DNA of 64,000 bases, taken from NCBI GenBank assembly GCA_000092065.1, contig CP000587.1. One strand, written 5' to 3'. Under the pieces are notes generated by a model, which saw only the letters and a list, made by a program, of their open reading frames with translations, searched no databases and had not been told where the DNA came from. This DNA is from Ostreococcus lucimarinus (Eukaryota). Below, piece after piece: positions 1,227 through 46,494 of the stretch. The translations under genes and the position numbers were made by a program. Each line of letters starts with the position of its first letter. Position 1 is the stretch's first letter.

Positions 1227-1261
1227 CGCGTCGACGCGTGACGCGATGACGCGACGACGCG

Positions 1262-2884
1262 ATGGACGACATTCGTCGACGCCGCGCGATGGCGTCGCGC
1301 GCGACGGCGCGCGCGGCGGCGTCGCACGACGCGCGCGCGGCGACGCGGCGCGCGCGCGTCGGCGGTGCGGCGCGCGAATCGGCGGCGCGGCGGCGCGCTT
1401 CGGGACGCGCGACGTCCGACGTCGACGGCGCTTCGGGACGCGCGACGTCCGACGTCGACGGCGCTTCGGGACGCGCGACGTCCGCGGACGCGTTCGATCT
1501 CGGACAGGCGATCGGGACGCTGGCGAGGGGCGAGCGAGGGGCGACGCTGCCGCCGGGACGCGTGGGCGCGCTCGGCGTGCGCGAGACGCTGGAGTACCTC
1601 GCGGACTCGAACGGCTTCGTGCGACGGCGCGTCGAGCGGTACGGACCGATTTTTAAGACGGCTTTGTTTTTCAAGCCGGCGATCGTGTTCGGAAGCCGAG
1701 AGGCGGTTCGAGAGTTTTTGAAATTTGAAGGCGAGCTCCCCGCGGACGAGGCGCTGCCGGAGACGTTTCGCGAATTGCACACCGAGTACGGGGCGCTGCG
1801 CATGACGGGGAGCAGACACGCGGCGACGCGCGCGAATTTCGGCAAGGTGCTGGGACGCGCGGCGCTGGAGAGTTACGCGCCGGCGATCGGGGAAAGGACG
1901 AGGGAGTTTGTGGAAGACGTAGCGCGGCGATCTGGGAAGGAGACGTCGTCGTTCAGGCCGGGCGCGGAGTGCGTGGATTTCGCGCTCGATTTGTTGTTTG
2001 AGCTCTTCCTCGGTCACGTGCCCGAGGCAAAGTACAAAGACGCGATGAAAGCGTACAACGGAGGATTACTTTCGCTCGGAAAATGGTCGTCGGAGTTTAA
2101 GGCTGGAAAACTGGCGCTGGAGGATTTGACGTCGTACGTCGAGGCGCATTACAGAGGCGTCAAAGCGCGCGGCGAACTCGATCGCCCAGAGTACTTCTTT
2201 TACAAGCAATACTCGCAAGCCGTGGACGAGTTCGACGAAGTGTTCAGCGACGATCGCATCGCGACGACGTGCGTGTTAATGGTCTGGGGTTCGTACATCG
2301 AAGCCGCCGCTCTCATGGGACACGCATGCGTTTTGCTGGGCGAGCACGACGACGCGCGGCGAGCCGTTTTGCGCGAGTTCGAGCGGGTGTGCTGCGACGA
2401 TGAAAACGGTTGTCGTCGCATCGGTACTTTGGCGGACATCATGTCCATGCAGTACACGTCCGCGGTGGCGAAGGAGTCGCTTAGAGTCATGCCGCAGACG
2501 GCGGGCGGCTTGAGAGTGAACCCGTCGCCTCGCAAATTCGCCTCGTTCGACGTACCCGCCGGTTACGTTTTGACCGCAGACCCACGCATTCCATTTCGCG
2601 ACGAAGCCAACTTCCCCGACCCGGACGCGTTCAAGCCTGAACGTTTCGTTCCAGGGACGCACGAAGCGAAGCAAAACGACGTCTCTTCGGAAACGTATTA
2701 TCCGGGCGGCATGGGCCAGCACCAGTGTCCTGGGATCTCTCTCGCGACGGTCATGACGCAAATATTTCTCGCCGAACTCGTGTCCGCTTTCCCAAACGGG
2801 TGGCGAGGAAAGACGGCGCCGAAATACGTTCAGGTTCCCATAGTCATCCTCGACAGAGAGTATGAAATCGAGTTTCTTCGCTGA
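1262..2884 (+). CDS. Cytochrome P450 monooxygenase with Arg/Ala/Ser/Thr-rich N-terminal presequence (possible organellar transit peptide)
   Basis: PERF motif (FPDPDAFKPERF) and heme-binding loop YYPGGMGQHQCPGISLA (FxxGxxxCxG). Pro-rich hinge LPPGRVG, then RYGPIFKTALFFKPAIVF. ATG verified at 1262; alternative ATG at 1289. Confidence 0.9.
   Translation: MDDIRRRRAMASRATARAAASHDARAATRRARVGGAARESAARRRASGRATSDVDGASGRATSDVDGASGRATSADAFDLGQAIGTLARGERGATLPPGRVGALGVRETLEYLADSNGFVRRRVERYGPIFKTALFFKPAIVFGSREAVREFLKFEGELPADEALPETFRELHTEYGALRMTGSRHAATRANFGKVLGRAALESYAPAIGERTREFVEDVARRSGKETSSFRPGAECVDFALDLLFELFLGHVPEAKYKDAMKAYNGGLLSLGKWSSEFKAGKLALEDLTSYVEAHYRGVKARGELDRPEYFFYKQYSQAVDEFDEVFSDDRIATTCVLMVWGSYIEAAALMGHACVLLGEHDDARRAVLREFERVCCDDENGCRRIGTLADIMSMQYTSAVAKESLRVMPQTAGGLRVNPSPRKFASFDVPAGYVLTADPRIPFRDEANFPDPDAFKPERFVPGTHEAKQNDVSSETYYPGGMGQHQCPGISLATVMTQIFLAELVSAFPNGWRGKTAPKYVQVPIVILDREYEIEFLR
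1395..1487 (+). repeat. In-frame 33-bp tandem repeat (about 2.8 copies) encoding GASGRATSDVD inside the P450 presequence
   Basis: gcgcttcgggacgcgcgacgtccgacgtcgacg is repeated head-to-tail starting near 1395, 1428 and 1461. Confidence 0.8.
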
Positions 2885-2939
2885 GACTCGAAACACATTC
2901 ATTTTACATTCAATTCAATTCATTCTAGATACCCGTTTG

Positions 2940-3719
2940 CTACTCTAACTCTACGTCGTCATCTTCATCGTCGCGAAACGTCCCACAGACGAAGTCGGGA
3001 GGCGGCGCGGTTTCCCGCAGAATCGAATTCTGCCCCGTTTTCGCGCCGTCGCGCACCAACTCGAAATAATGACAATCCCGTCCCTGTCCCACTCTGTACG
3101 GCGGCGTTTGCACCTCGAGCACCGCGCACGCCGACAGCGCCGACAGCGTGTGCACGTTCGCCCTCCTCGGATACAAAATTCTCGTCGCCCCTCGCGCGCC
3201 GTTCGCCGCCGACATCACCTCGTCGACGCAATCGCGCGCTTCGTGTTCCCCCCCCCGCGCGGCGTGCGCGTCGCGCGTCGACAACCTCGGCGCGTCGTCG
3301 ATCAAATCGTACGCCTTCACGCGCGTCTCCCCGAACAGGCACCGCATGAGCACCGTCATTCCCGGATGGTTGTGCAGCGGTATCGTCTGTCCGCGCTCGA
3401 AGACGAACGCGCCGACGGTGAAGTCCTCCTCCGCGTGCAACCGCAGGTACGTCACCGTCGCCTGCGGCGTCGACGTCGCCCGCGGCGTCGACGTCGTCGA
3501 CGCCTCGCCGTCGCGCTCGCGCGCGTCCCGCGCGTCCCGCGCCTCGGCGCGCCGCGAGAACGCGCGCAGCGCGCGCAATCCCACGTCATCCATCGACACC
3601 GCGCACACCGCGCGCGCGATCTCCTCGACCGCGCGCGGCGACGCCTCGAGTCGCTTCGCCGCGCCCGCGCGCCGCAGGTGTCGCGCGCACGTCGCGACGA
3701 GCGCGTCGAGCGTCGTCAT
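2940..3719 (-). CDS. Cupin-type thiol dioxygenase, plant cysteine oxidase / 2-aminoethanethiol dioxygenase (PCO/ADO, DUF1637) family
   Basis: IPLHNHPGMTVLMRCLFG motif characteristic of the PCO/ADO family; ATG verified at 3717-3719. Lies tail-to-tail with the P450 (55 bp between stops). Confidence 0.7.
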   Translation of the reverse strand: MTTLDALVATCARHLRRAGAAKRLEASPRAVEEIARAVCAVSMDDVGLRALRAFSRRAEARDARDARERDGEASTTSTPRATSTPQATVTYLRLHAEEDFTVGAFVFERGQTIPLHNHPGMTVLMRCLFGETRVKAYDLIDDAPRLSTRDAHAARGGEHEARDCVDEVMSAANGARGATRILYPRRANVHTLSALSACAVLEVQTPPYRVGQGRDCHYFELVRDGAKTGQNSILRETAPPPDFVCGTFRDDEDDDVELE

Positions 3720-3775
3720 CGCGCGCGGCGCACTGCGGCGGCGGCGGCGGCACTCACCGACGCGACGACGCGACG

Positions 3776-4492
3776 ATGCGCCCGCAGCGCGGCGGACGCG
3801 GCGGACGCGGCGCGCGCGGCGCGCGCGGCGGACGCGGCGGACGCGGACGCGGCGACGCGCGCGCGCCGTCGTCGAACGGGGGCATCTGGAGGAGCAAAGT
3901 CACGTGCTTCGGGTGTCGAGGCGTCGGACACACGCTGCGGGACTGCCGCGTGGCCAAGGGCGGGAGCGCGACGATGCGGCGAGGGGAGAAATCGTGCTAT
4001 AACTGCGGCGCGAGCGATCACGCGGCGCGAGACTGCGCGGCGGCGTGGACGAATTACGCGCACGCGAAGTGCTTCGTGTGCGGCGAGACGGGACACCTGA
4101 GCAAGAGCTGCCCGAGGAACGAGCGCGGGGTGTACGTGAACGGAGGTGAGTGTAAGATATGCAAGGCGAAGGATCACTTGGTGAAGGATTGCCCGCACAA
4201 GGGAGACACGTGCATTCGGTGCGGGGAGCGGGGACACTTCGCGGCGGGATGCTCGAAACCGTTCGCGGGGGCGAAGACGACGAAGGCGAAGACGGGGGAG
4301 AAACGACGGTTGGGGGGGGATGATTTAGACGATGATTTCGTCGCCGGTGGTCGTGACGACGGCGATGGTGTCGACGGCGACGCGAGCGAGGATGCGGGCG
4401 TCGAGGCCGAGGAGGTAGAGGCGGAATCGAAGAAGAATCCTTCAAAAAAGTCGAAAAAGGACAAGAAGAATCGAGAGGTTGTCTTTTCCTGA
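3776..4492 (+). CDS. CCHC zinc-knuckle protein (five CX2CX4HX4C knuckles) with N-terminal RGG/GAR repeats; CNBP/Air1-Air2-like
   Basis: CFGCRGVGHTLRDC, CYNCGASDHAARDC, CFVCGETGHLSKSC, CKICKAKDHLVKDC and CIRCGERGHFAAGC. N-terminal GGRGGRGARGARGGRGGRGRG. Acidic/basic C-terminal tail. Confidence 0.85.
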   Translation: MRPQRGGRGGRGARGARGGRGGRGRGDARAPSSNGGIWRSKVTCFGCRGVGHTLRDCRVAKGGSATMRRGEKSCYNCGASDHAARDCAAAWTNYAHAKCFVCGETGHLSKSCPRNERGVYVNGGECKICKAKDHLVKDCPHKGDTCIRCGERGHFAAGCSKPFAGAKTTKAKTGEKRRLGGDDLDDDFVAGGRDDGDGVDGDASEDAGVEAEEVEAESKKNPSKKSKKDKKNREVVFS

Positions 4493-5095
4493 TGACTGGT
4501 ACTACAATCGCTACTTTCGAGGGCTTTAGGTCGTTCGGCGAGATCGCGCGAGCGAGCTGTCCCTCCTTCGCGTGGGGTGTAGTACTGCGGCTGGGTCAAC
4601 CCTGGGTTAACCTGCCGCAGGCGAGCGATAGTTTGTACGCTATCGCCGCCTTGTTTCGGGTGTCTTCTGGCGTCGGCCTCTGCGCGAGGGTCAGTCTGCG
4701 CGGCCCGTCTCGGAGATGACGATCGCGCGAGTCGTCGCGCGAACGCGCGCGCGCGCGTCCATCGCCGCGCACATCGATTCAAAAGAATTCGTACCCGCTT
4801 TCTTTCCTTCGTTTTCGTGTCTTGCTAGTCGCGCGCGCGACGCCCGAGGCGCCGCCCGAGGCGGGATCCGGCGCCGAGAAACGCCGTTTCAACGCGCCCC
4901 GTCTCGCGCGTCCGCGCGTCGCGCGCGCCGCGGCGCGGCGCTCGAACGACGCGCGGTTCGATGTTCGACCTTTTTTCTTCTTTCGCGACGCTTCCGCGAC
5001 GACCGCGCCGAGTCGCGCGCGCGTCGCAGAGTGCCGAGGTGCCCTCGCGCGCGTCCGAGGCGCGCGTCACGAGGTCGAGACGCCGAGACGAAACG

Positions 5096-5734: not shown

Positions 5735-6985
5735 TTACTTCTTCCCGGCGCCGGAGAGGATGCGATCGAAAGACTTGGCGAAGCCGTCGAGCGCGGTGGG
5801 CTTGTAGCCGACGAGCTCGGTGGAAATATCAAACACTTCGTTCGCCTTGGCCATGTCTCTGCCTTCCTTCGACGGCTTGTTGTTGAACGCAATCGTGCGC
5901 GTGTCGTCGTTGTTGTTGTTGTAGTTGTCCCAAAGCTGGTCGCCACCACCCTTCCAGGCCCAGTACGCGCCTTGCTCGCTGTATCGCGGATCGTACACGA
6001 TGGAGGCGAGGCGTTCGCCGGCTTCTTCCTCGCTGACGTAACCCTTGGTGACGTTCTTTTGAAGAATCGGGAAGAACCAGCGGAAGAACGCGGTGTGGTT
6101 GCGGAACAAGTTGGAATCCGCGATGCATCCCGGGTACATCGTGCTGAACTTGATCCCCGTGGATTCGCCGAAACGCTCGGCGAACGCCTTGATGTCGAGC
6201 ATGTTGCACAGCTTGGAATCCTTGTACGCCTTGGCGCCGATGAAGCGAGTGCCGTCGATCAACGCGCCTTGGTTACGGTCGCTATTCTTGAAGCCGTTTC
6301 TCAAGCCCGACATGTCGCCGAGACCCGCGCGCGGCGGCACTTGACCGGCGAGCGTGTTCGTGTTGCCCGTCACCGACCCGACGATGATCAAACGCTTCAT
6401 GTTCGCGTCCGGCGCTTCCGCGAGATCGTCGAGCAAGAGCAAAGACAACAAGTGGTGACCGAGATGATTCACCCCCACGCACTCCTCGAACCCATCCTTG
6501 GTGTACGACGGCACCGTGGCGTTCGGGAGATACAGCGCCGCGTTGCACACCAGCGCTTGAAAGTTCTTCACGTACTTGGATCGTCGGAACTCGGTCGCGA
6601 AATCGCGCACCGACTGCAAGTCACCGAGTTCGAGGTACATGATCGCGTACGACGACTCGTCCAGCCCCAGCTCGTTCGCCTTGACCTGCATCTTCTCCGG
6701 CGAGCGCACCGCGTTGACGACGAAGTATCCATTCTTGATCAGCGCCTTCGCCGTGTACAGCCCGAGTCCCGAGGACGAGCCCGTGACGATGGCGACCGGT
6801 TTGTTTTCCGCGTTCGCCGGCATCACGTTTTGTTGCGACGACGCCGCGCGCGCGACGACGGCGCGCCCACCGCGGCGCGTCGGCGTCGCCGCGCGTCTTC
6901 CGGAAGATCCCTTCCTCGCGGTCGTCATCCGTCCCGCCGCGTTCGGCGTCGACGACGCGCGGAGCGAAGACGCGCGCGCGTGCAT
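5735..6985 (-). CDS. POR: Light-dependent NADPH:protochlorophyllide oxidoreductase (LPOR), chloroplast precursor
   Basis: SDR Rossmann motif VAIVTGSSSGLGLYTAKAL; YKDSKLCNML catalytic YxxxK region; LPOR-typical STMYPGCIADSNLFRNHTAFFRWFFPILQKNVTKGYVSEEEAGERLA. The likely start is ATG 6983-6985 (MHARASSLRASS..., a transit-peptide-like sequence). The ORF track extends to 7108 in frame, without a verified ATG there. Confidence 0.9.
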   Translation of the reverse strand: MHARASSLRASSTPNAAGRMTTARKGSSGRRAATPTRRGGRAVVARAASSQQNVMPANAENKPVAIVTGSSSGLGLYTAKALIKNGYFVVNAVRSPEKMQVKANELGLDESSYAIMYLELGDLQSVRDFATEFRRSKYVKNFQALVCNAALYLPNATVPSYTKDGFEECVGVNHLGHHLLSLLLLDDLAEAPDANMKRLIIVGSVTGNTNTLAGQVPPRAGLGDMSGLRNGFKNSDRNQGALIDGTRFIGAKAYKDSKLCNMLDIKAFAERFGESTGIKFSTMYPGCIADSNLFRNHTAFFRWFFPILQKNVTKGYVSEEEAGERLASIVYDPRYSEQGAYWAWKGGGDQLWDNYNNNNDDTRTIAFNNKPSKEGRDMAKANEVFDISTELVGYKPTALDGFAKSFDRILSGAGKK

Positions 6986-20631: not shown

Positions 20632-21934
20632 GTCGAGCGACGCGCGCGTCGCCGAGCTCGATCGACGCGGGTACTACGTCGCCGTCGACGTCCCGCGCGG
20701 GGCGACGTTCGCGCTGGACACGGCGGAGTGGACGTGCGACGAACGCTTCGCGGGCGTCAAGGCGCTGACGCGTGGATTGCACTTCGTCGCCGTGCGCGAC
20801 GCGAACGAGCGAGGCGCGGGCGAACGCGTGGGAGAGTTCATCGACGCCGCGCCGGGAAGCGTGGAGATCCGGAGGTGGGACGCCGCGGTGGAGACGCTGG
20901 GGGAGGGAGAGGGGATGAGCGCGGAGGACGCGGAGCGCGCGCGCGCGGCGACGCGGGAAGGACGAGCGTTCGATGGAGGGTTAGCGTGGTATCCGACCGA
21001 GGTCGAGACGCGATGGATGGGATTGAGCGGATGGATCACGCGGGACAGCTTGCGGAGGTGTGGGGTGGATTGCGGGACGCGCGTGGTGGCGGGCGACCCG
21101 GAGGCGGAGACGCGCGGCGACGAACGGGGAGGAGTGGTGCCGTATTTCGATAACATACAGCGCGCGCCGACGTTTACGGTGAATGCGGTGCGGAAAAGGC
21201 CGAGTGGAATGACGCCGGCGGAGGTGTCGGCGATAAATATCGATGCGAACGCGCGGCTGGCGCACGCGGTGGCGTGCTTCGGCGACGACGGCTGGCGCGG
21301 GTTGTTGGGAGAGTTTCAACTCGCCTTCGTTCTCTTGATGGGGCTGTCCTCCATGGCGGCGTTGGAGCAGTGGAAACATCTCGCGCACGTGGTGTGCTCG
21401 TGCGCGGAGACGGCGGTGTTCGACTATCCGGAGCTTTACCTCGGGTTTGTCGACGCGCTCGATGCGCAGCTCGCGCGCGCGGGCGAAGACTTTTTCGTGG
21501 ACGATTACACCGAGGACAACTTCTTGCGGCCGTGCATGGTAGCACTGATGCGCATCGACGTCGACGACACCCCGAAGCGAGAAGTCACGGACATGGATGT
21601 CGAATCGACGCTGGACGCGATTTCGAGCAAGCTCGCCGCGCTCGCTCGCGGCGTGCGCGAGAAATTCGACGTCGACCTCATCGAGGAAGCTCGCGAGGCG
21701 AAGCTCGCGGACTCGAGCGTCGTCGACGCCGAAGAAGACGCCCCGGTCGTCGTCGAGTTGAGTGAGGGTCATTACATGGCCATGAACGCGACCGACGTCG
21801 ACGTCGAGTCCGACGCCTTCAAAACGGACGCCGAATCCGGCGCCGAGCGCATGGGCTGGATGCGCGCGTACGCGCCGACCAGCGCCGACCACACGCCGAG
21901 GAACGGTTCGAAATTCGTCAACCAACGGGCGTAG
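20630..21934 (+). CDS. AAR2: AAR2-family protein (U5 snRNP assembly factor homolog)
   Basis: GYYVAVDVPRGATFALDTAEWTCDERFAGVKALTRGLHFVAV matches the AAR2 N-terminal consensus. Conserved C-terminal region FQLAFVLLMGLSSMAALEQWKHLAHVVCSCAETAV. ATG verified at 20630-20632, overlapping the ABC1K start codon on the other strand. Confidence 0.6.
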   Translation: MSSDARVAELDRRGYYVAVDVPRGATFALDTAEWTCDERFAGVKALTRGLHFVAVRDANERGAGERVGEFIDAAPGSVEIRRWDAAVETLGEGEGMSAEDAERARAATREGRAFDGGLAWYPTEVETRWMGLSGWITRDSLRRCGVDCGTRVVAGDPEAETRGDERGGVVPYFDNIQRAPTFTVNAVRKRPSGMTPAEVSAINIDANARLAHAVACFGDDGWRGLLGEFQLAFVLLMGLSSMAALEQWKHLAHVVCSCAETAVFDYPELYLGFVDALDAQLARAGEDFFVDDYTEDNFLRPCMVALMRIDVDDTPKREVTDMDVESTLDAISSKLAALARGVREKFDVDLIEEAREAKLADSSVVDAEEDAPVVVELSEGHYMAMNATDVDVESDAFKTDAESGAERMGWMRAYAPTSADHTPRNGSKFVNQRA

Positions 21935-22170
21935 AATCGAATCGGTCCCATGCCGCGGCATCCTCGGTCGTACGTCAGCGATTCCAACTTTTCGTGGAAT
22001 CCGCTCGCGTCGCGCAGGCACCCGGGCCAGATCTCGGCGTCGCTCGTCGCCTTCGAGCCTCGCCGCGACGTCGACATCGCGCGCGTCGCGTTCGTCGTCC
22101 CGCGGCTTGTGATCGTAATCTCACGAACGACCATCCGCGGCTTCGCCTCTCGCCTCTAACGGTAGGGGTC

Positions 22171-22566
22171 GGTGATGCTGAAATCTGCTACATGTTTTTC
22201 AGACTTTTTTTGCTACAAGTTTCTGAACTTTCAGCCAATTTTTGCTACAACTTGTAGCAACTTTCAGACAATTTGCACGCAGAAAGTCTGAAACTTGCTA
22301 CGTCTCCGGTGATGCTGAAATCTGCTACATGTTTTTCAGACTTTTTTTGCTACAAGTTTCTGAACTTTCAGCCAATTTTTGCTACAACTTGTAGCAACTT
22401 TCAGACAATTTGCACGCAGAAAGTCTGAAACTTGCTACGTCTCCGGTGATGCTGAAATCTGCTACATGTTTTTCAGACTTTTTTTGCTACAAGTTTCTGA
22501 ACTTTCAGCCAATTTTTGCTACAAGTTGTAGCAACTTTCAGACTTTGGTGTAGCAAGTTTCAGACT
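22171..22566. repeat. AT-rich 137-bp tandem repeat (about 2.9 copies) full of short palindromes, at the left boundary of the low-GC island
   Basis: Copies start at 22171, 22308 and 22445. The unit contains gctacaacttgtagc (a perfect 7-bp inverted repeat) and tttcagac...gtctgaaa. About 35% GC in a genome that is otherwise 65-70% GC. Confidence 0.9.
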
Positions 22567-22836
22567 GACCCCCTCTCGCCCGAAATCGACATTCGGCGTC
22601 CGCGTCACCAATTCAACGAACTCGCCGGCATTGATCGGGCGCGACGTCACGCGTGCGCGCGAACGAAGCGAACGAAGCGAACGACGCGACCGCTCGATCG
22701 AACGGCGCGACGACGCGAACGACGCGACCGCTCGATCGAACGGCGCGACGGCGCGACGCGCGCCGGCGCGACGAATCGAATTCGCGTCGCGCGATTCGTT
22801 GAATTGCGATTGCGCATCGACGGTCGACGGTGAACC

Positions 22837-24609
22837 ATGGCGAACGCGCTGATCGCGTTTACGCTCGCGAACGCGGCGTGTGAGCTGGTGACGCCGATAC
22901 GGTACGCGCGGACGATGACGCTGTGGAGCCGAGGACGCGGGGATTGCGGAGAGACGGCGAAGATTGGAGCGGTGTGCGGGTACCTGATTCAAATCGCGGC
23001 GACGTTTACGTGGTACGAACTCGCGGTGCTGGGAATCATCCCGGGCGGCGCGAGCGACGGTACGGTGGACTTTGAATTGCGATTGATACATCAAATGTTC
23101 ACGTACGTGACATTCGGAGCGGTGTTCGCTATTTGGCTGGACGACCTCGCCGTCGTCGGCGCGCCCGTTTCGTGGTGCTCGTCGCTGGCGAGATTGTACC
23201 AGTTCTTCTCGACGCGAATGATCGCGTGCATGATGATCATGGCGAGTCGAAAAACGCCAACGGCGTGGCATCCGTTCTGGACCGCGGCCGGTTACACGGC
23301 CAGCGCGGTAAAGGGCGCGGGAACGGACGTAATTCTTAAATATGCGTACTACTTTTGCCGAGCTGGGTTCAGCGTTGTGTCCATGGCGATAGCGCTGACG
23401 GGGGTATTTTACTGGAATCCAGTTCGCGCCTGGTTTATCCGCGTAGAAGATTCTCAATCGCGCGCGAGTCGCACTTCGAACCGCAAGGAGATGATGCGAA
23501 CCATCTTTTGGCACTGTGCGTTTGGTCTGATTTTCAGCGCAATTTGGATCACGGCGTCGAATTCAGGAATTCCTCGCATCGATGCCATCAAGGGGGCATC
23601 TAGATCTACCATGTCTACGCATTACTTCGAGCCTTGGATTCCGGGACACCAGATCATCCACGCGAAGAATCACGGGCAAACGATGATAGCGGTTGCATAC
23701 GCCACTTTTATCGCGTACTCATTGAACTATATGGACGACGGCGGTTTGTGGATCTCAAAAGTTCTCTCAATTCAACTGCCCGCCCAGATTTACAACTTTT
23801 TTGTTGTTATTTACATCATCGTCGCCCTTGGTGGTGGAACCATCTTTCATCCAACCTGGTACACGAATGGTTGGGCCCCAAGCTGGGCGACACATCGTAT
23901 GCTGGATTGGCTCTTCTTCGTTGGTACTGGTCATCTGACTATTTTCGGTGTTCCACTCATCACGTACGCGCTTCTCAAGCATCTCAGTATTCCCGAATTT
24001 AAGCCGTATGCGACTGCTTCCATGGGCTTCTTTACCAAGTGCATGCGTCATGGAATGGTATCAATTTTGTTTTCTGGGCTGTGGATGATGGCCGTCAGTA
24101 CGGGCGTGCCCATGCCAGATGCCAAACTCACAGCCATGTTTGGACTTCCCCCTCTACACAAACTCGACGTGCGAGAAACTATCAAGATGCATCACGTCGA
24201 TATCATCGTGAGCATAATTATTATGGCGAACGGTTACGCCGTGCTGGCTCTCGACCGCGTTGTTCAGCTGGATTACAAGCTGCATCAATTCATCACTGTC
24301 GTATGGAAGCACTCGATGACCAGTCGATGGGTGTACTTTTGGTGTGCGAAAATTCTCTTGCATAGCGGCGAGCGTTTTACTACACCGAACGTTATCGCCT
24401 CGCTCTTGCGCTTCCGATCGCAAGTTAAGTCTACCAGCAGTGACAACTGGTTTTTCGTTTTGATCGCCGTCATGGAACTGTACTCTTTCACCGCGATGAT
24501 GCTCTTATTTCTCTTCACACTCACCCGAATGGCTCGTGCCAGTGTGGCTTACTTGAGAAATAACGGCCAAGGTCAGGTAAACTGGACAACCGGCCTGAAG
24601 CAAGAATAG
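22837..24609 (+). CDS. Polytopic membrane protein (about 12 TM segments), unknown family; likely paralogous to the N-terminal membrane region of the 26138-31984 megaprotein
   Basis: ATG verified at 22837. GC falls from about 62% at the 5' end to about 47% at the 3' end. By-eye matches to the megaprotein: NFFVVIYIIVALGGGTIFHP vs MPFFTIMTAALMNILFHHAF; HRMLDWLFFVGTGHLTIFG vs FHMFGVSLASMAHLFILG; EPWIP vs HSWIP. Confidence 0.6.
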   Translation: MANALIAFTLANAACELVTPIRYARTMTLWSRGRGDCGETAKIGAVCGYLIQIAATFTWYELAVLGIIPGGASDGTVDFELRLIHQMFTYVTFGAVFAIWLDDLAVVGAPVSWCSSLARLYQFFSTRMIACMMIMASRKTPTAWHPFWTAAGYTASAVKGAGTDVILKYAYYFCRAGFSVVSMAIALTGVFYWNPVRAWFIRVEDSQSRASRTSNRKEMMRTIFWHCAFGLIFSAIWITASNSGIPRIDAIKGASRSTMSTHYFEPWIPGHQIIHAKNHGQTMIAVAYATFIAYSLNYMDDGGLWISKVLSIQLPAQIYNFFVVIYIIVALGGGTIFHPTWYTNGWAPSWATHRMLDWLFFVGTGHLTIFGVPLITYALLKHLSIPEFKPYATASMGFFTKCMRHGMVSILFSGLWMMAVSTGVPMPDAKLTAMFGLPPLHKLDVRETIKMHHVDIIVSIIIMANGYAVLALDRVVQLDYKLHQFITVVWKHSMTSRWVYFWCAKILLHSGERFTTPNVIASLLRFRSQVKSTSSDNWFFVLIAVMELYSFTAMMLLFLFTLTRMARASVAYLRNNGQGQVNWTTGLKQE

Positions 24610-24806
24610 TCCGTGAGCAATGGACTTAATTAAAAACTTTCTGCGACTTACTACTCTTTACATCAACTGAAAACGGTCAAGAAGTGTTCGCACACCGGTT
24701 GCTATACAAAAGCCGTTTGTGCACTTTTGCCATAGCATTCTGGAACCTTGTGCGACTTCGAAAAGGATGCTTGATACAATACATATGAATATGCTATGAC
24801 TATTAA

Positions 24807-25859
24807 TTACGCTAATTTCGATGCTCGTGAAGACGAATGCGGCGCGCCATCGAGCGATTCATTGTCATGTAGTAGAACGCTGATGTATTCAAGCATCGCT
24901 TGCCCCGCCGTGTCATTCAGAATTTCCTCAAAGGAGAGTGATCCGCGATTCGAGATATCGATGCGCTCGAAAAGCTCTTTTATGTCTCGTGCGTCGACGC
25001 CCCACGTGAACAATTGCTCACGGAGCTCGCTCCCATCTAACGTGCCATTACCATCCTTATCCAGCACATCAAAAGCTGTCCGTAACGGCGTCTTACCGAT
25101 TCGCAAACGTACCAACGAATTCACTCTACCACAGATAGCTGCAAAATTGCGTTCTTTTCCGCTTTCCTCGGATCCGCACGCGTTGGAATACGCGGCAATG
25201 ATGACTATGGCAATGAGGGCACCCACGGGACCGTACACTGCTGGTATGACTAAAAACAGTGCAAGAGTTGCCCCTGTCGTGTACCGGTGCTCCTTAATAC
25301 CCGGAACATTCGTGAACGCAAATATAAACATTCTGGAATACACGAACCCCTGCGCGAGAACGAGCTGGTCGATGAAATTTTCCAATACGGCGCCGCTCGA
25401 GTCTGACGAAAGCGCGCCGGCTCCAATCAGCACTCGAAACGCTTTTTCGATGTGCGCGGTGTTTATAATGTGCAATGCAGGAGTTATAATAGACGGTGTC
25501 CCAAACGATGCGTCGATTTGAAGCATCGCCGTGAGCGCGATCACCAACACGCACGCCGCGCTCGCGCGCATCGTACCCCTCGCGCCGCCGCCGACCAGCA
25601 ACGCTCGCGCGCCCAACGTCAGCTCCATCGTTCCGAAGGCCACGTGCACCAACAGGCGCCTCGCTCGTCGACGATTCAGTCTAAATTTAGGATGCATGCG
25701 CTTCTTGCCCGCTCGAGCGTAGCCCAAGACGAGGAAAATCTCGAGCACGTACCCGATGACAATCACGGCAATCTTTTGCGTTCGCTGCTCGCTCGCCTCG
25801 CGCACGGTCCCACCGAACGCGTACGCACCGAGCGGGAGATCATACGTCCATGCGAACAT
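24807..25859 (-). CDS. Multi-pass membrane protein with a C-terminal EF-hand calcium-binding motif
   Basis: Hydrophobic helices through the first roughly 230 aa; EF-hand loop DKDGNGTLDGSELREQL; ATG verified at 25857-25859. About 50% GC. Confidence 0.6.
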   Translation of the reverse strand: MFAWTYDLPLGAYAFGGTVREASEQRTQKIAVIVIGYVLEIFLVLGYARAGKKRMHPKFRLNRRRARRLLVHVAFGTMELTLGARALLVGGGARGTMRASAACVLVIALTAMLQIDASFGTPSIITPALHIINTAHIEKAFRVLIGAGALSSDSSGAVLENFIDQLVLAQGFVYSRMFIFAFTNVPGIKEHRYTTGATLALFLVIPAVYGPVGALIAIVIIAAYSNACGSEESGKERNFAAICGRVNSLVRLRIGKTPLRTAFDVLDKDGNGTLDGSELREQLFTWGVDARDIKELFERIDISNRGSLSFEEILNDTAGQAMLEYISVLLHDNESLDGAPHSSSRASKLA

Positions 25860-26137
25860 TTACGCGTGCGTATCGAACGCGCGTCGTCGGGTCGAGACGA
25901 ACGCGTCGCGGTGTTCGGTTGGCCGTTGAGCGGGTTTGGGAAGTGCTTGTTTGAACGTTGTGCTTTTGCTTAAATAGTAAAACTGGTAGCGCGACAAACG
26001 CGTTATCGCACGATAAACGCGCTATCGTTGGGAATGTATCCAAAACTACGAATAGGCCGCAGGCTCGCGGCGGGAAGTCTTGCTCGTGGTGAGTTGGTTC
26101 ACCCACCGATTTTTGGAATTTTGACGCAACAGTGGCT

Positions 26138-29100
26138 TTACACACCAATGTTGCTCGGCACGCGTTCTGGGTGCATGTAAGGATATGCCTTTACTCCAAG
26201 CTTTGCGTTGCGGTTTTCGATCTGGCGTCCCATGGCACGCAGCTCAGAACGGAGATCTTGGAGAGCGGCGATTTCAGCCGGCGTAATCATCATGTCAGTG
26301 ATGTAATGTCCGACAAAAACCTCTTCTTTTGAGAACTGTGAAAGCGTCCAGCCAGTCGCCATCGTCTGCGCCGCTTGACCGACGCTCGGCAGCGCGTCGA
26401 TAACATCTTTTTCCGTCACCGGAACCTTCTTCGTCGGCGCAGGCTTGCGCATGATGAGCGGACGATTTGGACAATAAGAGTAATAGTCCCACTGGCTGAA
26501 GTTGACTGCGGCGTGAGTAAAAGAGCACGTGTACATCACTGACGTGCAGATATCAACAAGTTGATCGATTGAATCGATACTACCCGGCACACCGTGCTGA
26601 CTTCTGTCCGTGCCTTGGTATCCATAGCCTTGCATCTCAAGAATCATGCTCTGTATGTATGGATCGGCGGCAACTTCCGCGTCAGACGTGTAGTGCAGCT
26701 TGAAGATGCTTTTAGCGAAACGACGAAGACAGGCCCATGCTCGCAACGAGTCGTCACGATGATGATAACCTCTCAAATCTCCCTCACTTAGCACGCCACG
26801 TTTTTTAAAGGAGGTCGGAACGTGCAAATCGTCAAGCTTAAATCTCTGGTACGCTTTGCTCATCAAGTCCATGTGACCTCCTTGGCCAACTGCTACGACG
26901 CGATCAGTAACTCCTCCCGGAGATATTAACAACGACCGCCCAAGGGTATTGATGGCAATCACGTAGATGAGATGAGGACGCAATACCCGGTACACAGGAT
27001 GGTTTCTTGGAAGAGTTCTTTCGACGCAGACGGACCACGGTTCCATGAGCAAGTGCGTGCCCAATAGGTGCGATATCATCTGATGTACGTTTCCGTCAGA
27101 GCACATTAAGTGCGCTTTTGCGAGGAGCCACTCGTACTCGCCATCTTTTGGAGTCCATACCGGCGCGCTAGCACCAGACTGAAAGTGCTGGATGCAGATT
27201 GGGCGAAGTGCCGTGCTCTTGTCCGCAAAGAAGAGAGCCATGGAGTTCTCGACGCAGTAGCCTTGACCGCGCTTGATATCCTCAAGGATTTCATAGTCAA
27301 CCATGAATATGTGCCCTGCTGCCAACTCGCTTTCGAGCGTTTTGCCTGGAGGTAAAACGCCTCTTACATGTTCTTCGGTGACGCGAAACTTGGCTGGAAT
27401 TTGAGACACTTTGCGCACTTGATTTGGATGTGTTCCATTCATAAATTGACGACCAAACTCCTCGTCCGAACGCCAGTCTCTGATGATTGCAACAGGGGGG
27501 AGAGAAGCGTAAAGGCGATAGTAGTCATCCAGCGATTTAATTTCTTCGTCCTTGATCATTTCGGCGACGCCTTTATTTTCGAATCCCACAAAAGTATCGA
27601 CAAAGAAGTCCTTGTATTTTGTTGAGCTGAATTGCTCCGTGATGGGGAGCTTTGAGTGGTCGTCATATGTGCTATGATTTGGCAAGTACGAACCATTCGA
27701 CCAATCGAATTCCTTCTTCATGAACGAAAGGTACTGTTCAGTCGCATCGGCGATCAGTTGGCGACAAGCCAAGCTTGTTGTCGGCGTAATGGAGCACGGA
27801 AGAACGAATCGGACACCTTGGCCAATGTATCGCCACACATTCAACGTGAAACTCGTTGGAATTTGCGAAGTGAACGTCACATCTATCCGACCGCAATTCC
27901 AAGAGCTTTTCGAGGTTTGAGAAATAATGGCGTAAGCTGGCTCTCCAATATCGTCGGCGTGCACGAAGTGCGTGCTGATTGCTCCAGTTGCGAAGGAGTC
28001 ACCGAGATCATGCAGGACGATTTTGGGCGTAGCGCCACGCGTTCCGACGAATTGTAGCACCACATCACCGTCTATTCCAGACCCAGCGATTGAATGCGTC
28101 GTAACTTTGATCGTATACTTTTTTGACGCTTCAGGAGCGTAAACGTCTTTTCGTCCGCGGGTGAAAACGCGGCGAATTTTATATGACGTCTCGTAAACCA
28201 CCGCACGCGTCCAGTTCAAGGAGTTATAGTCTTGCGAGTTGATTGGTCGAGTGAGAGGCATGCAAGCCGGAGTACGATTCATACCGAACGATAAATTCTC
28301 AACCGAGTGTTGCGGGAGTGCGGCGTGAAGTCTCACGACTCCAACGTCGAGAAATTCAGTCCCCCAAGCTTTGTTGGGGTTGAAAATTTCCGCGGTATCC
28401 GAAGAAGTGGCCTCATATAACTGGATTTGAAGTCGGTACCTCACGGCTTCGCCCGCCACCTTGGTGCAGAACTCGTTTCGCAGATAGTCAGGCAAACGTT
28501 TCTCGTTCGGTAGTCGACGATATTTCATCATATGTGTCGTTGCGATCAGGTTCTGGTCAGCCTCGTCAGGCAAGAACGGCTCTTGACCGACGTCCGTCCC
28601 AGGGCCAGCTCCGTATGGAACGAGTCTGAACTTGCAGTATCGCTTTTTGCCATCCAAAGCATGGAATTCGCGACAAGTCTGCGAGTAATAATGTAAATCG
28701 CAGTACGAGTCGGGTGCCCTTCGCACCCCGCCGATACCAGCCTTAATGCCTGTGGGATACTTCATTCCCCATGCCTTGTAAGCGGAGTCGTTAAACGTCG
28801 CCATTTGAAATACGAACGGAAGAAACGAATCCAAGTTGAAAAATCCAGCGAATTCACCAGTGTTCAGGTGCAGATCGAATGGACTTTCGTCGACGGCATT
28901 TGAGAACTTCAGCGCACAACCTCGAATCTCAAGAGATGCGTCGTCATACATTTCCGAGTCGGCGAGCTTCACGCCGACGGCGTTCGAGTGCCTCAAGATG
29001 ATTGGCATCGTCTTGCCCTTCGTAAAGAAAGCATTTTTGGGCACCTTACTGTTCTCGATGACGGTGAATTGCCCGATCGCACCAACACCGACTGGATGGG

Positions 29101-31984
29101 TCGGGCGCCTTTTCTGCATCAGAGTGCCAAACACGAACATGAAAGCAATCTTCAACTGCATCACCAGCAACCCAAACGCATTGGGAGGTGGCATTGGAAT
29201 GGGAAACTCGGAATTCGAGGCTGCGTCGAACATTTCATCTCCGAAAGCGGCTTTATAACACTTGACCCAGTGATTTTGCCACTGTGACACCACCGCGACC
29301 AATGGCCTTGGAGAGGTGGATGGCGACTTCGACAAAATACGACCGAAACTCGACTTTCGCATCGTACTCATCTCATCCGGAACCACAATGCCCCGCTTAA
29401 ATAGTGCAGCAATGAACCTTACCTTGACGGTACTGAGCATCACCACTCGGTTTTTAACCGAATGGATCAACTTTTGAGTGGCTTTGGCGAATTGGAACCA
29501 GACATAAGTCCAACCCATGGTGTGGAGGAACAGCGAAAGCGTCAAGGGTGTACTGGTGTAACCGCAAAGCCACGAGAACCGCGAAACAAACACCAGCATG
29601 TGCATGAAATACACTCCACGGACGACTCTCATCACAGGTTTCAAGAATCGACCAAACGACGAGACGCCGCTTGTAAGGACTGAATGTGTCAGCGCGAGAG
29701 TCAAGAGACAGAAGTATCCAACGTGAAAGGAATCCTCGATGATACTGTCAGCCGATTCAAACGCGGAGAGAGTCATGAGCCGTCGACGAAGGAGGTCAAC
29801 CATCGAGTTCGAAAGAGCGCCCGCGCCAATAATACGCACTAACCTGATGAGAATATGCCAGATGTGAGATAATGCACCCAGTGTGCACATCATCTTCGTC
29901 GTCTTCTGGATTGCATGAAAACGCGACCTCGCCTCCTTCGACGTTTCGTGCGTATTCACGAGAGCAATGTGCTGCAAGTACACCCGAAGCCAAGCCAGGC
30001 ACAGTAAGATGATTTGAACATCAGTCTCGACGCTTTCTAGGTATGCATTTTCGAAGCGCTTTGCGTCACAACTGCGCAACGGGCATCCTAAGAGTATGTG
30101 AACGAGGGTTCGTGAAACTTTATCACTCTTGCCCGTCAGCGCCTTGTAATAGAGTGAGATAATCACAAACCACAAAGTGATAGTGCTCTGCGCAAAAGTA
30201 TTCATGGAGAGTGCGACTCCTTTTGGAAAAGAAGGGTTCATGAGATTGTGGGCAGCGAAAGATAACAGTAGAGGACTGATTGCGGACATTCTTGGAACTG
30301 GCTTCGGTGCGATCAAGTACGTGTCTGAAAGCGGCACAGGATGCGGTATACCACTCGTTAGCAGAGCGATCGGAAGCATAGCGCAGAGGACAAGGACCCC
30401 ATTTATCCATGCACACTTCTCTACCTGCCGTTGCAAAGCGAAATGCTTCAGCACAAGCATGCGCCAGCGTCCACGCAAATTCGTGAAACCCGTTCGCTGG
30501 CCGCTCGAATCCGGATTTCTGGAAAGGTGAACGGCGCCTCGTACGCACGCGTAGATTGAGAGCATCATGATGAGCCAGATAGTGAAATCAACCCCCACCC
30601 AATCACTGGGAGCGTGATGTAACTTTCGCGTCCACGGATTGGACATAGCACGAGCCACCAGAAAATGATCGCAGAGAGTGTAGGAAACAGACATTGCCAT
30701 CACGCCGTAGATCAATCTGGCGCTTCTTAGCGTTCGTTGGTCAGAAAATGCGCTCTTTCGAATCACGGCGGTGCTTATACCCACGAACGCGTGCAACACG
30801 ATGGAGTATTGCATCATTGAAATGCGAGCCAACTCGGCGTCGCCGCGCAGCAGCGCGTGTTCCTTGCTGAACCGTAAGCGCAGGACGGGAAAAGAAAGAG
30901 TTGACAAGCGGCGTGCGATGGTGCGGAGGATTGGAAAGTTGACCTTCAAAAGTGGTACCTGAAGGCGACCCCACTCTGGCATCATCACACCGGTGGCGAT
31001 GCCCTGGTACCACAAATTTGTGTACAGGAGACTCCCCAGTATGAACAAATGCGCCATGGATGCCAGGGAGACACCAAACATGTGGAATCCTTTGCGAGTC
31101 GGCCCGACGAAAATGGGACCGTTAAACGCGTGGTGAAAGAGAATGTTCATCAGGGCGGCCGTCATGATTGTGAAGAAGGGCATGTTGATAGAGAACCTGA
31201 ACCAGTCCGGCAGTGATCCGTGCGTTATGATGATCAACGCGAGAAGGCTCTTCGACGCTATCATGACGAACAGTGCGCCGAATGAACCTTGCCGCAGTGC
31301 AGGAATCCACGAATGAGATAGAATGCCAGTGACGAAGAGACCGGCGGAACACATACCGATGGTGTTTGGATTGCGCATGTTCGCCAAAGCGGAGAAGTGT
31401 CGACCGAACTCGAGTACGAAGATCGCCCCGCCGATGTAACAGATGCTAAATAGCACAGCCAGACGTTCGTGCATGATAAATAGCGTCGACGCTGATCGAG
31501 GTTTGGGAATCTTGAAATACCTGACCCGTTTCTCCGGCGGCACGTCCACCACGCCCAAGCGGCTCACGCGAATCAAACAAAATTTACCCAACGCGCCCAG
31601 ACCGTCCACGGACACCATGAGCGCTCCGACCGCGCAGTTCGGCATCTTCATCATCAACCGTAATCCATAAAGCGTCACGAACGCCAGCTGCGTTTCAGTC
31701 GCGTAATGCGTGTACGCGTCGCTCCCCGTGCACACGTACGACCACCCAATCGCGTGCACGCACGAGAACACGTACACCCACAGCGCCAGGCACGTCCCAT
31801 CGAACGAATTGAACACCAAATCGTTCGCGATCGCCCCGACGACCGCCGGCCGCGTTCGATCGCGCGCCACCGCCGCGTACGTCACGTACGCCGTCGACAG
31901 CACGTAATTGATTCCCTGCAACGCGTGGAAACGCCCGACCGACCATCCGGGCCTTAGCGCGTCGCTCGCCGCGTCGCTCGACAT
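26138..31984 (-). CDS. 1948-aa single-ORF fusion of an N-terminal polytopic membrane region (about aa 1-910), a catalase-fold heme domain (about aa 930-1280, AOS/HPL-like), a PLAT domain and a lipoxygenase
   Basis: Catalase core by eye: RRPTHPVGVGAIGQFTV (cf. ERVVHAKGAGAFGYFEV, distal His), MPIILRHSNAVGV (cf. TPIAVRFSTVAGE), LEIRGCALKF (cf. RDPRGFAVKF), FFNLDSFLPFVF (cf. FFIRDALLFPSFIH), proximal-Tyr region RAPDSYCDLH. PLAT: GSGIDGDVVLQFVGTRGATPKIVLHDLG. LOX: HQMISHLLGTHLLMEPW (His ligands), HAAVNFSQWDYYSYCPNRP (His/Asn ligands), C-terminus ...ERVPSNIGV (terminal Val, not Ile). ATG verified at 31982-31984. About 48-50% GC except the 5' 300 nt. Confidence 0.85.
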   Translation of the reverse strand: MSSDAASDALRPGWSVGRFHALQGINYVLSTAYVTYAAVARDRTRPAVVGAIANDLVFNSFDGTCLALWVYVFSCVHAIGWSYVCTGSDAYTHYATETQLAFVTLYGLRLMMKMPNCAVGALMVSVDGLGALGKFCLIRVSRLGVVDVPPEKRVRYFKIPKPRSASTLFIMHERLAVLFSICYIGGAIFVLEFGRHFSALANMRNPNTIGMCSAGLFVTGILSHSWIPALRQGSFGALFVMIASKSLLALIIITHGSLPDWFRFSINMPFFTIMTAALMNILFHHAFNGPIFVGPTRKGFHMFGVSLASMAHLFILGSLLYTNLWYQGIATGVMMPEWGRLQVPLLKVNFPILRTIARRLSTLSFPVLRLRFSKEHALLRGDAELARISMMQYSIVLHAFVGISTAVIRKSAFSDQRTLRSARLIYGVMAMSVSYTLCDHFLVARAMSNPWTRKLHHAPSDWVGVDFTIWLIMMLSIYACVRGAVHLSRNPDSSGQRTGFTNLRGRWRMLVLKHFALQRQVEKCAWINGVLVLCAMLPIALLTSGIPHPVPLSDTYLIAPKPVPRMSAISPLLLSFAAHNLMNPSFPKGVALSMNTFAQSTITLWFVIISLYYKALTGKSDKVSRTLVHILLGCPLRSCDAKRFENAYLESVETDVQIILLCLAWLRVYLQHIALVNTHETSKEARSRFHAIQKTTKMMCTLGALSHIWHILIRLVRIIGAGALSNSMVDLLRRRLMTLSAFESADSIIEDSFHVGYFCLLTLALTHSVLTSGVSSFGRFLKPVMRVVRGVYFMHMLVFVSRFSWLCGYTSTPLTLSLFLHTMGWTYVWFQFAKATQKLIHSVKNRVVMLSTVKVRFIAALFKRGIVVPDEMSTMRKSSFGRILSKSPSTSPRPLVAVVSQWQNHWVKCYKAAFGDEMFDAASNSEFPIPMPPPNAFGLLVMQLKIAFMFVFGTLMQKRRPTHPVGVGAIGQFTVIENSKVPKNAFFTKGKTMPIILRHSNAVGVKLADSEMYDDASLEIRGCALKFSNAVDESPFDLHLNTGEFAGFFNLDSFLPFVFQMATFNDSAYKAWGMKYPTGIKAGIGGVRRAPDSYCDLHYYSQTCREFHALDGKKRYCKFRLVPYGAGPGTDVGQEPFLPDEADQNLIATTHMMKYRRLPNEKRLPDYLRNEFCTKVAGEAVRYRLQIQLYEATSSDTAEIFNPNKAWGTEFLDVGVVRLHAALPQHSVENLSFGMNRTPACMPLTRPINSQDYNSLNWTRAVVYETSYKIRRVFTRGRKDVYAPEASKKYTIKVTTHSIAGSGIDGDVVLQFVGTRGATPKIVLHDLGDSFATGAISTHFVHADDIGEPAYAIISQTSKSSWNCGRIDVTFTSQIPTSFTLNVWRYIGQGVRFVLPCSITPTTSLACRQLIADATEQYLSFMKKEFDWSNGSYLPNHSTYDDHSKLPITEQFSSTKYKDFFVDTFVGFENKGVAEMIKDEEIKSLDDYYRLYASLPPVAIIRDWRSDEEFGRQFMNGTHPNQVRKVSQIPAKFRVTEEHVRGVLPPGKTLESELAAGHIFMVDYEILEDIKRGQGYCVENSMALFFADKSTALRPICIQHFQSGASAPVWTPKDGEYEWLLAKAHLMCSDGNVHQMISHLLGTHLLMEPWSVCVERTLPRNHPVYRVLRPHLIYVIAINTLGRSLLISPGGVTDRVVAVGQGGHMDLMSKAYQRFKLDDLHVPTSFKKRGVLSEGDLRGYHHRDDSLRAWACLRRFAKSIFKLHYTSDAEVAADPYIQSMILEMQGYGYQGTDRSQHGVPGSIDSIDQLVDICTSVMYTCSFTHAAVNFSQWDYYSYCPNRPLIMRKPAPTKKVPVTEKDVIDALPSVGQAAQTMATGWTLSQFSKEEVFVGHYITDMMITPAEIAALQDLRSELRAMGRQIENRNAKLGVKAYPYMHPERVPSNIGV

Positions 31985-32532
31985 CGCGTCCCGCGCGTCC
32001 GCCTCTTTTCGCGACCGTCTCCGCGATCGCTCGCGTCGCGTCGCCGTGCGCGCGCGCGTCTGTGTCGTGATACCGCCGCGGAATCAAATTTAATTAATCG
32101 ATTCGATCGCTAACGGTCGCGCGCGATCTTCAGCGCGCGCCGTCGACGCGACGCGACGCGCGCCCGCGCGCGGGTCGCGGATTCGCGAAAAACAAAATCG
32201 CCGCGGGCCGGCGCGCGATCCTCGGCGCGCGCGCCGTCACGCGCGATGTATCATCTTAGTCATTCTTAGCGCTTGGTTTAGCTCACTGTATAGTAGCGCG
32301 TCTTTGTAGTCTCAGCTCGTCCGACGCTCGTCTCGCCGAAACGAAACAAACTGCCTCAAAACCCGATACAGGGATCGCCGCAAAGATGGCCTCGCCGTTC
32401 GCCGTCCCGCCGCTCCGGCGGCGCGCCGCCGTCCTCGCGGCGTGGGAAACCATCACAGACGTTATCGCGGACGAAGGTGCGCGCGCGCGCGCGCGGTGAC
32501 GAGAAAACGACGTCGACGAAGACGAGCACGCG

Positions 32533-46068: not shown

Positions 46069-46494
46069 ATGCTGGCCGCGCGCGCGACAACGACGACGCG
46101 CGCGACGGTGCAGACACCGCGCGCGCCCAGCGCGGGCGCGAGTCGCGCGCGCGTCGTCGCGCGCGCGTCGTTGAAACAATCCGCATCCAGCTTGGTCGCG
46201 CACGCCGCGGTCGCGCTCACCGTCGCCAATCCCGCCCTCGCCGACGCCCTCGCCGCCGTGGATGACGTTCCGCTGACGAAATCGCCCGCGTTCCTCGGAT
46301 TCGCGTGCGTCGCGGTGTGCTGGGGGATCCCACAAACGCTGGGAACGGCGATTTTGTCGCAAAAGGAAGCGAAGGGACGCGCGCTGTTGCAGAAGCGAGG
46401 CATCGACACGTCGGACATCGGGCAGGGTAATTGGGGGAAGGTGCAGCGTCGTTTGCAAGAGAACGACATAGATTGGAAGAACGAGGAAGCTTAG
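46069..46494 (+). CDS. Small single-TM protein with bipartite (stromal plus lumenal) targeting sequence; putative thylakoid membrane protein
   Basis: Ser/Thr/Arg-rich N-terminus, then hydrophobic VAHAAVALTVANPALADALAA (AxA-type cleavage site), then TM helix FLGFACVAVCWGIPQTLGTAIL. ATG verified at 46069. Family not recognised. Confidence 0.5.
   Translation: MLAARATTTTRATVQTPRAPSAGASRARVVARASLKQSASSLVAHAAVALTVANPALADALAAVDDVPLTKSPAFLGFACVAVCWGIPQTLGTAILSQKEAKGRALLQKRGIDTSDIGQGNWGKVQRRLQENDIDWKNEEA

Follow-up and report, generated by a model that had tools for sequence, protein, structure and literature searches.

An AT-rich tandem repeat in Ostreococcus lucimarinus is probably a small Mutator-like transposon derivative carried inside a 10.4-kb gene block

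What is the AT-rich tandem repeat that lies between AAR2 and the next gene in Ostreococcus lucimarinus, and does it mark the edge of the gene island beside it? We analysed a 64,000-nt stretch of contig CP000587.1 (hereafter the window), in which the local gene order is ABC1 kinase (− strand), AAR2 (+ strand, stop at 21934), the array, a 590-aa ORF (+, 22837–24609, XP_001418669 of strain CCE9901), an EF-hand ORF (−, 24807–25859), a 1948-aa ORF (−, 26138–31984, weak catalase-like match/PLAT/lipoxygenase) and GCN1 (+). A first-pass annotation made from the sequence alone had placed the AAR2 stop and the following ATG at 22837 correctly, and had left three options for the repeat: a satellite or minisatellite, a MITE-like footprint at the edge of an inserted segment, or a protein-binding array (promoter, insulator or origin). 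The segment 22170–22571 is most likely a non-autonomous, MITE-like derivative of a Mutator-like element (MULE) that has undergone an internal tandem duplication and sits as a passenger inside a 10.4-kb block. We read the array in this way because its family is dispersed and has fixed ends, because one member has a 9-bp target-site duplication (TSD), and because its relatives form a chain to a transposase ORF.

The head-to-tail repeat is real. Tandem Repeats Finder returned an array at 22170–22543 with a period of 137, 2.7 copies, 99% matches and a score of 741, and a repeat search showed that the copies at 22170–22306 and 22307–22443 (both + strand) are 100% identical, with a copy at 22444–22580 at 77% identity. 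The three starts proposed earlier (22171, 22308 and 22445) agree within 1 bp with 22170, 22307 and 22444. The third copy diverges after about 100 bp: relative to copy 1 it has a sole mismatch at position 82 up to about position 100, and a different end thereafter. The array had been ended at 22566; its true end is 22571, at the terminus ...CAGACTGACCC, which gives a full extent of 402 bp (22170–22571). Its GC content is 0.388, against 0.652 and 0.654 in the 500 bp on each side, and the earlier figure of 35% was slightly low although rightly far below the flanks (0.65). Two other stretches of the window fall below 42% GC (24601–24825 and 46451–46650) and neither has repeats inside it, so that the array stands, as proposed, as the sole AT-rich structured repeat in the 64 kb.

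Each of the first two copies consists of the family terminus T1, which in copy 1 is CGGTGATGCTGAAATCTGCTACA (22170–22192), and the 137-bp left subterminal region of the family. Copy 3 (22444–22571, + strand) is a 128-bp MITE form made of T1, the first 100 or so positions of the unit, TTTGGT and, on the right, the terminus T2 (TGTAGCAAGTTTCAGACTGACCC, 22549–22571), and this architecture is that of the short copies in the metagenome loci L034, L053 and L092. The element would thus be read as two successive blocks of [T1 + 137-bp left subterminal region] and, after them, a miniature form running from T1 to T2. Because both upstream [T1 + 137 bp] blocks are 100% identical, the duplication is recent; recent unequal exchange or replication slippage would be its simplest cause. 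An apparent copy-number polymorphism of the 137-mer (2.7 against 1.7 copies between assemblies) was set aside, as short-read assemblies with k = 141 can collapse identical 137-bp units.

The building block of the array is a 16-mer, GTAGCAA(C/G)TTTCAGAC, present in both orientations as six exact and three degenerate copies. Searched with at most three mismatches, GTAGCAANTTTCAGAC has nine matches in the 64-kb window (0.84 expected by chance), all within 22176–22565 and none elsewhere in the window. An inverted pair, GTAGCAACTTTCAGAC and GTCTGAAACTTGCTAC, makes up a hairpin-forming module at 22254–22301 that is repeated at 22391–22438; further 16-mers lie at 22528–22543 and 22550–22565, and degenerate ones at 22176–22191, 22313–22328 and 22450–22465. 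We presume that the 16-mers are putative transposase-binding subterminal repeats. The 19-bp palindrome TTGCTACAA-C-TTGTAGCAA is found at 22242–22260, 22379–22397 and 22516–22534, its central base being G in the last of these (copy 3); both it and the tttcagac/gtctgaaa pairs had been recognized in the first-pass annotation and are present in the array. T1 and T2 match each other in inverted orientation (22171–22192 against 22549–22570, 77% complementary over 22 nt), imperfectly, at 16 of 23 positions.

The DNA fold of the whole element, folding having been among the checks proposed for this repeat, pairs both ends (z = −6.3), and the RNA fold of one unit (z = −2.5) contains a stable hairpin at 22254–22301. 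Such a hairpin and fold, with the box-like strings GTGATGC and CTGA that the array contains, are what tandemly clustered genes for small structured RNAs, e.g., snoRNA-like genes of the form GTGATGC ... CTGA, might offer. We consider such a cluster extremely improbable: no Rfam family reached its gathering threshold (the only weak match at E ≤ 1, MIR8562, scored 24.5 bits against a gathering threshold of 211), the inverted 16-mers account for the hairpins, and the family to which the units belong has transposon hallmarks. Only one ORF overlaps the window copy, a mechanical call on the antisense strand that continues into the next gene. With 402 bp, relatives of 127 and 71 bp, no coding capacity and inverted though imperfect termini, the element has the size (below about 600 bp) and the ends of a MITE.

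A scan of metagenome contigs with the 16-mer returned at least 120 loci, at least 23 of which have two or more copies of it, L139 being the sole window locus among the matches listed. The other loci (at least 22) match the window within 22166–22572 only, over 56–137 bp at 83–96% identity, and their flanks are unrelated, which is the dispersal expected of a MITE. These other copies belong to uncultured Ostreococcus-like populations, an exact protein look-up having matched none of them to an NCBI-named genome. Multi-motif loci other than L139 represent at least 14 contexts unrelated to the island, and this dispersal, by the standard that the first-pass annotation had itself set, speaks against its proposal that the unit marks the island boundary. 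The family has two termini, T1 (CGGYGATGCTGAAATCTGCTAC) and T2 (GTAGCAAGTTTCAGACTGACCC). Similarity stops sharply on the left between CGGY and GATGCTGAAATCTGCTAC (T1) in eight loci, and on the right directly after ...CAGACTGACCC (T2) in at least 10 loci. At the window locus T1 and T2 both lie inside 22170–22571, unlike the arrangement of a composite transposon or Pack-MULE.

In L092/L103 a 71-bp copy consists of T1 joined to two T2-type 16-mers, and a perfect 9-bp direct repeat, CGAGCGGTT, abuts both termini; L034 and L053 carry 127-bp single-unit versions with the plan of window copy 3. Target-site duplications had also been proposed as a check, and the outcome was mixed: of the four copies with both ends, the one in L092/L103 has a perfect TSD, but none was found at T1 and T2 of the window copy or in L034 and L053, even when shifted boundaries were allowed for these three. 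The right flank of the window copy (22572–22587, + strand) begins with CCTCTCGCC (22572–22580), followed in overlap by TCTCGCCCGAAATC (22574–22587). The 9-mer CCTCTCGCC, which abuts T2, occurs a second time at 22146–22154, 15 nt to the left of T1, and the pair around the array is possibly a displaced 9-bp target duplication. No empty allele of the L092 insertion was found; the five further contigs were all filled, and a 92% relative had a diverged intergenic region.

At all the other loci examined the unit occurs singly; it reaches 2.7 copies at the window locus alone, no satellite-type expansion having been seen elsewhere, and the option of a plain satellite, with the long arrays that characterize satellites and minisatellites, is not supported. 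Tandem arrays arising within MITEs are well documented (PMC9659126, PMC4079207). As in the MITE-derived satellites of Xenopus (Xmix/Xstir, miDNA4), bivalves (pearl/CvA) and Drosophila (the Tetris foldback element), the part bearing the terminal repeat has been duplicated head-to-tail (PMC9659126, PMC4079207), but the array here has only 2.7 copies at a single locus.

A reading of the array as a host cis-regulatory or chromatin element would make it a set of sites, bound by a DNA-binding protein of the cell, that lies upstream of the 590-aa gene and has counterparts at other genes. AT-rich DNA generally carries few nucleosomes, the array lies 266 bp upstream of the ATG in an otherwise GC-rich intergenic region, and the 16-mer is strongly over-represented locally. 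We nevertheless find a host element quite improbable, as whole units, spacers included, are 83–96% identical between loci and hence look like recent copies and not like conserved sites, copies also lie downstream of genes and within other repeats, and the orthologous gene block in another contig (L163, below) lacks the 16-mer. For the protein-binding array of the first-pass annotation, nothing in the data requires an array of the host.

Longer relatives connect these small copies with a coding element. The window unit corresponds to positions 7053–7166 of L127 (94.7%), where a 1.9-kb non-coding version of the family ends in T2. The L127 element shares overlapping sequence with L028 (97%) and with L081 (96–97%), in the latter case to the left and right of an additional 2.8-kb segment. 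In L081 the L127 backbone is thus extended by 2.8 kb; the copy has two ORFs (289 and 1017 aa) and T2 at its end, and its left end is missing. L127, L028 and L134 connect the backbone to the 137-bp unit and T1. The link between the T1/137-bp unit and the transposase ORF is therefore a contig overlap through L127 and L028, not a single molecule, and the overlap chain would imply an element of about 5 kb. With L081 sharing T2 and the backbone, the family has the autonomous relative that is characteristic of MITEs. The MITE-like option of the first-pass annotation is the one that the dispersed family, its conserved imperfect inverted termini, the 9-bp TSD in one copy and this transposase-bearing relative bear out.

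Pfam gave no match for the 1017-aa or the 289-aa ORF, even at E ≤ 10. The 1017-aa protein family has 43 representatives among 1.84 billion proteins, and in relatives of the protein Pfam Peptidase_C48 is above the cut-off, with MULE, Transposase_mut and SWIM weak. A PDB profile search with the family returned an Ulp1-like protease first (E = 2.3e-5) and a 'Mutator family transposase' second (6xg8, E = 0.043). One relative, P0100, matches Pfam MULE below the cut-off (E = 5.9e-5) and is itself tied to the family at E = 1.6e-7 (hhalign probability 96%). An AlphaFold (AF2) model of the 1017-aa ORF built on 20 sequences has a pLDDT of 75.9 and a strand/helix order as in the RNase-H fold, a first model on seven sequences (pLDDT 50) having been too poor for the N-terminal part. 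The best PDB match of the 20-sequence model is the ISCth4 (IS256/Mutator) transposase (6xgx_A, probability 1.00, E = 3e-3, 326 aligned columns). Furthermore, the C-terminus of the ORF matches SENP/Ulp1 proteases, the motif W-x-C-N-C ... C-G-H (CxC...CxH) is invariant in a seven-sequence family alignment, another relative (P0074) has a Pfam SWIM match at E = 0.091, and candidate catalytic residues (GADG, NSDD and PIESLQ) were read by eye from the alignment. For the transposase part, the signals are marginal E-values (0.003–0.04) and the order of the fold, each weak alone but in agreement. The whole suggests that the ORF is a predicted DDE transposase of the Mutator/IS256 type that also bears a SWIM-like motif and, at its C-terminus, an Ulp1-like protease. 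ISCth4, of the IS256 family, is both the best structural and the second-best sequence-profile match, but, as a bacterial insertion sequence that is about 12% identical and lacks Ulp1 or SWIM-like parts, it is kin at the level of the superfamily only.

The 289-aa ORF of L081 (80–949) overlaps the 1017-aa ORF (880–3933), and an intron or a frameshift may join the two. It has a C-x7-C-x-C...H-x-C pattern (RYFFCLSHEEESCPCKLRV...GHVC), which by eye resembles the WRKY/FLYWCH-type DNA-binding fingers of MULE transposases.

A 9-nt TSD is typical of plant MULEs, and MULEs carrying ULP are established in plants (PMC2528002). Like the MULE MITEs and ULP1-carrying MULEs (KI-MULE, melon and rice), our family has small non-coding members with inverted ends, one of them with a 9-bp TSD, and its larger relatives likewise combine a DDE transposase, a CxC..CxH motif and an Ulp1-like cysteine protease in the same element. 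It differs from the ULP1-carrying MULEs in that here the transposase ORF runs in frame into the protease, and in that the family is very small, is invisible to the Pfam MULE, SWIM and C48 models and has a prasinophyte host. The long TIRs (100–200 bp) of Mutator elements are absent. In contrast to classical MULEs, the TIRs here are about 23 nt, inverted at the tips and imperfect, with several 16-bp subterminal repeats in both orientations, and inward of the tips the two ends share 16-mers in different arrangements; this layout is nearer to that of Ac or En/Spm than to the classical 100–200-bp Mu TIRs. Short TIRs do not exclude membership, because non-TIR and short-TIR MULEs are known (PMC2528002). 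We found no description in the literature of the array repeat or of MULEs in Ostreococcus, and the MULE family is apparently previously unnamed in Ostreococcus-type picoalgae. Taken alone, the array would be nothing unusual: a locally duplicated remnant of a small transposon. A Mutator-like family that the Pfam models tried have missed, however, can aid the repeat annotation of very compact picoalgal genomes.

Under the MULE reading, the AT-rich modules (the 16-mer and the GCTACA/TGTAGC palindromes) would be terminal and subterminal repeats of the family with a putative role in transposase binding, and the small copies may have been mobilised in trans by cut-and-paste. The palindrome TTGCTACAASTTGTAGCAA, with a 16-mer after it, is found both in the left subterminal unit and directly before T2 in the long copies. 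A deletion between two copies of TTGCTACAASTTGTAGCAA could produce the 128-bp miniature form that is copy 3.

A viral origin was considered and rejected. In IMG/VR a 28-mer had 0 matches and the 16-mer 10 single matches, which is at chance level, and there was no prasinovirus link. The 1.8-kb 'accordion' repeats of O. mediterraneus (PMC13390643) are likewise unrelated to the array.

The surroundings of the family termini show a regularity. TAGGGTT starts 22–23 nt outward of the terminus at 7 of 11 distinct termini, with intervening spacers that are unrelated in sequence; the heptamer occurs once in the 64-kb window, and a simple binomial estimate for the spacing gives P ~1e-25. The TSD-bearing L092 has CAGGGTT at 22 nt, its spacer being host DNA; L042 and L079 have the reverse-oriented AACCCTA at 21–22 nt; and L154, a sister family with a transposase 40% identical and a homologous terminus, has TAGGGTT at 21–22 nt. 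The heptamer-flanked termini are those of L055 (4993), L126 (889), L064, L074 (6879), L127 (8948), L110 (848), L053 (1330), L028 (T1 side), L092 and L154. The sequence TCTCGCCCGAA(A)TC is shared by the right flank in the window (22574–22587) and the L154 spacer (5906–5918), which in L154 is followed by (TTTAGGG)3. In the 1.2 Mb of DNA fetched, this sequence occurs independently at these two places only, each after a family-type terminus. The L055 copy is 4.9 kb from a true telomere, and its contig opens with 16 copies of CCCTAAA. The window copy has neither a TSD nor the heptamer.

This spacing might result from insertion at a set distance from telomere-like sites, from heptamers that are part of the element, or from healed breaks. 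We tentatively suggest a eukaryotic cut-and-paste transposon that seeks out telomere-like sites and inserts at a constant distance from them or, alternatively, ends generated by breakage and telomere-type healing; we would not put much weight on this proposal. On such a reading, the window copy, without TSD and heptamer, would be a displaced copy brought in by a relocated gene block. Either version, if true, ties the family to the hypervariable chromosome ends and the outlier chromosome of Ostreococcus. If confirmed in complete genomes, the fixed 22-nt spacing would be unusual as an example of site-directed integration or of the healing of breaks, and would bear on how Ostreococcus outlier chromosomes are rearranged.

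The telomere-like heptamers adjoining most termini, the L055 copy within 5 kb of a true telomere, the lack of a TSD in three of the four complete copies, the occurrence of the family's modules A, B and C in varied combinations and local tandems, and the presence of several copies in low-GC contigs with genes of the outlier-chromosome type (glycosyltransferase, KDO pathway) would also be consistent with a subtelomeric or outlier-chromosome repeat spread by ectopic recombination, break repair and segmental duplication, the window copy having come with the relocated block. We judge this unlikely, because recombination alone does not predict an ORF of the transposase type enclosed by the same ends, a perfect 9-bp duplication directly adjoining the L092 copy on either side, or many loci with sharp identical ends and unrelated flanks.

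We now turn from the MULE derivative to the island around it. A segment at 21868–32243 is present in the window and absent from seven contigs (L141–L147), which have ACGGCGC (7 bp) in its place. In all of these AAR2 leads straight to GCN1; the flanks are 99.1–99.8% identical in six (L142–L147) and 98.5 and 94.5% identical in L141. Two more distant Ostreococcus species (AAR2 about 60% identical; L148–L151 compared) also have the order ABC1-AAR2-GCN1 without the block, and because of this the empty state is taken as ancestral and the block as derived. By these comparisons the 10.4-kb block entered the CCE9901 lineage as an insertion, and its presence is still polymorphic. The first-pass annotation had thus seen a real island; the low-GC island as defined by composition, however, extends into GCN1, outside the insertion. 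GC3 is 0.60–0.64 in the island genes and 0.57 in GCN1, and composition alone over-extends the island because the two are alike in this respect.

The edge of an inserted segment does lie near the repeat, but the left junction is 303 bp upstream of it, inside the coding end of AAR2. In CCE9901, AAR2 reads ...GWMR followed by 22 new residues (AYAPTSADHTPRNGSKFVNQRA), against ...GWMR-DGADVSS in the empty allele. The boundary-marker role that had been suggested for the repeat is not supported, as the right end of the insertion has no copy of it and the junctions share only CG (GCGCG-type) microhomology. No TIR, LTR or direct repeat joining the island ends was found. Because the junctions show only microhomology and the ends share no repeat, the sequence points to entry by an end-joining type of insertion, not by transposition. 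An island bounded by repeats was rejected on the same ground and for the absence of the 16-mer elsewhere in the window. The array is a passenger 303 bp inside the block, neither its boundary nor its cause; the element may have travelled with the 10.4-kb native gene block or may already have been within it.

Orthologues of the three island genes occur in L163 (2003–12414) with 69, 61 and 69% amino-acid identity, clustered in a changed order beside a 2OG-Fe(II) oxygenase and a LysM gene; the 16-mer does not occur in that gene block. Because orthologues are clustered in this other Ostreococcus-like genome, the block is native to the genus, and as judged from these orthologues the island consists of native genes that have been relocated as a block, and not of foreign DNA. 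The idea that low GC betrays a foreign source was rejected, given the 61–69% orthologues and the equally low GC3 of GCN1 outside the insertion. The array has thus led to a clean 10.4-kb presence/absence polymorphism among nearly identical O. lucimarinus genomes, one that alters the C-terminus of the splicing factor AAR2 and adds three genes, one for a lipoxygenase fusion, one for an EF-hand protein and one unknown. The block is a ready marker and a case study for gene-block relocation in a picoeukaryote.

Several further observations were made at these loci. The 1948-aa ORF has a weak catalase-like segment (residues 960–1038), a PLAT domain and a C-terminal lipoxygenase domain, a layout reminiscent of allene-oxide-synthase/lipoxygenase fusions, and full-length homologues (63–69% identity) occur in other Ostreococcus-like contigs. 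Between the array and the ATG at 22837 there is a GC-rich 38-bp tandem repeat with 2.5 copies (22660–22756, + strand) that lies outside the transposon family; assemblies differ by one unit in it, which may be an assembly collapse.

In L055 a near-perfect palindrome of about 108 bp (4971–5078), with a 20-nt arm and TTTAGGG-type repeats, abuts T2. Two 12.85-kb contigs, L091 and L109 (GC 0.47), have the 137-bp unit in inverted orientation at their two ends, which are probably assembly breaks at the repeat. They carry genes for a glycosyltransferase-25, a CMP-KDO synthetase/RraA fusion, a KDO-8-P synthase, an arabinose-5-P isomerase and DUF7796, and their gene content resembles that of the small outlier chromosome of Ostreococcus. 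Finally, in L126 (about 400–560) and L064 the 137-bp unit has inside it another kind of small element with inverted repeats (gagggaaaatgtat...atacatttttcctc), accompanied by an apparent duplication of ctgaactttcag; this element is probably a second MITE family.
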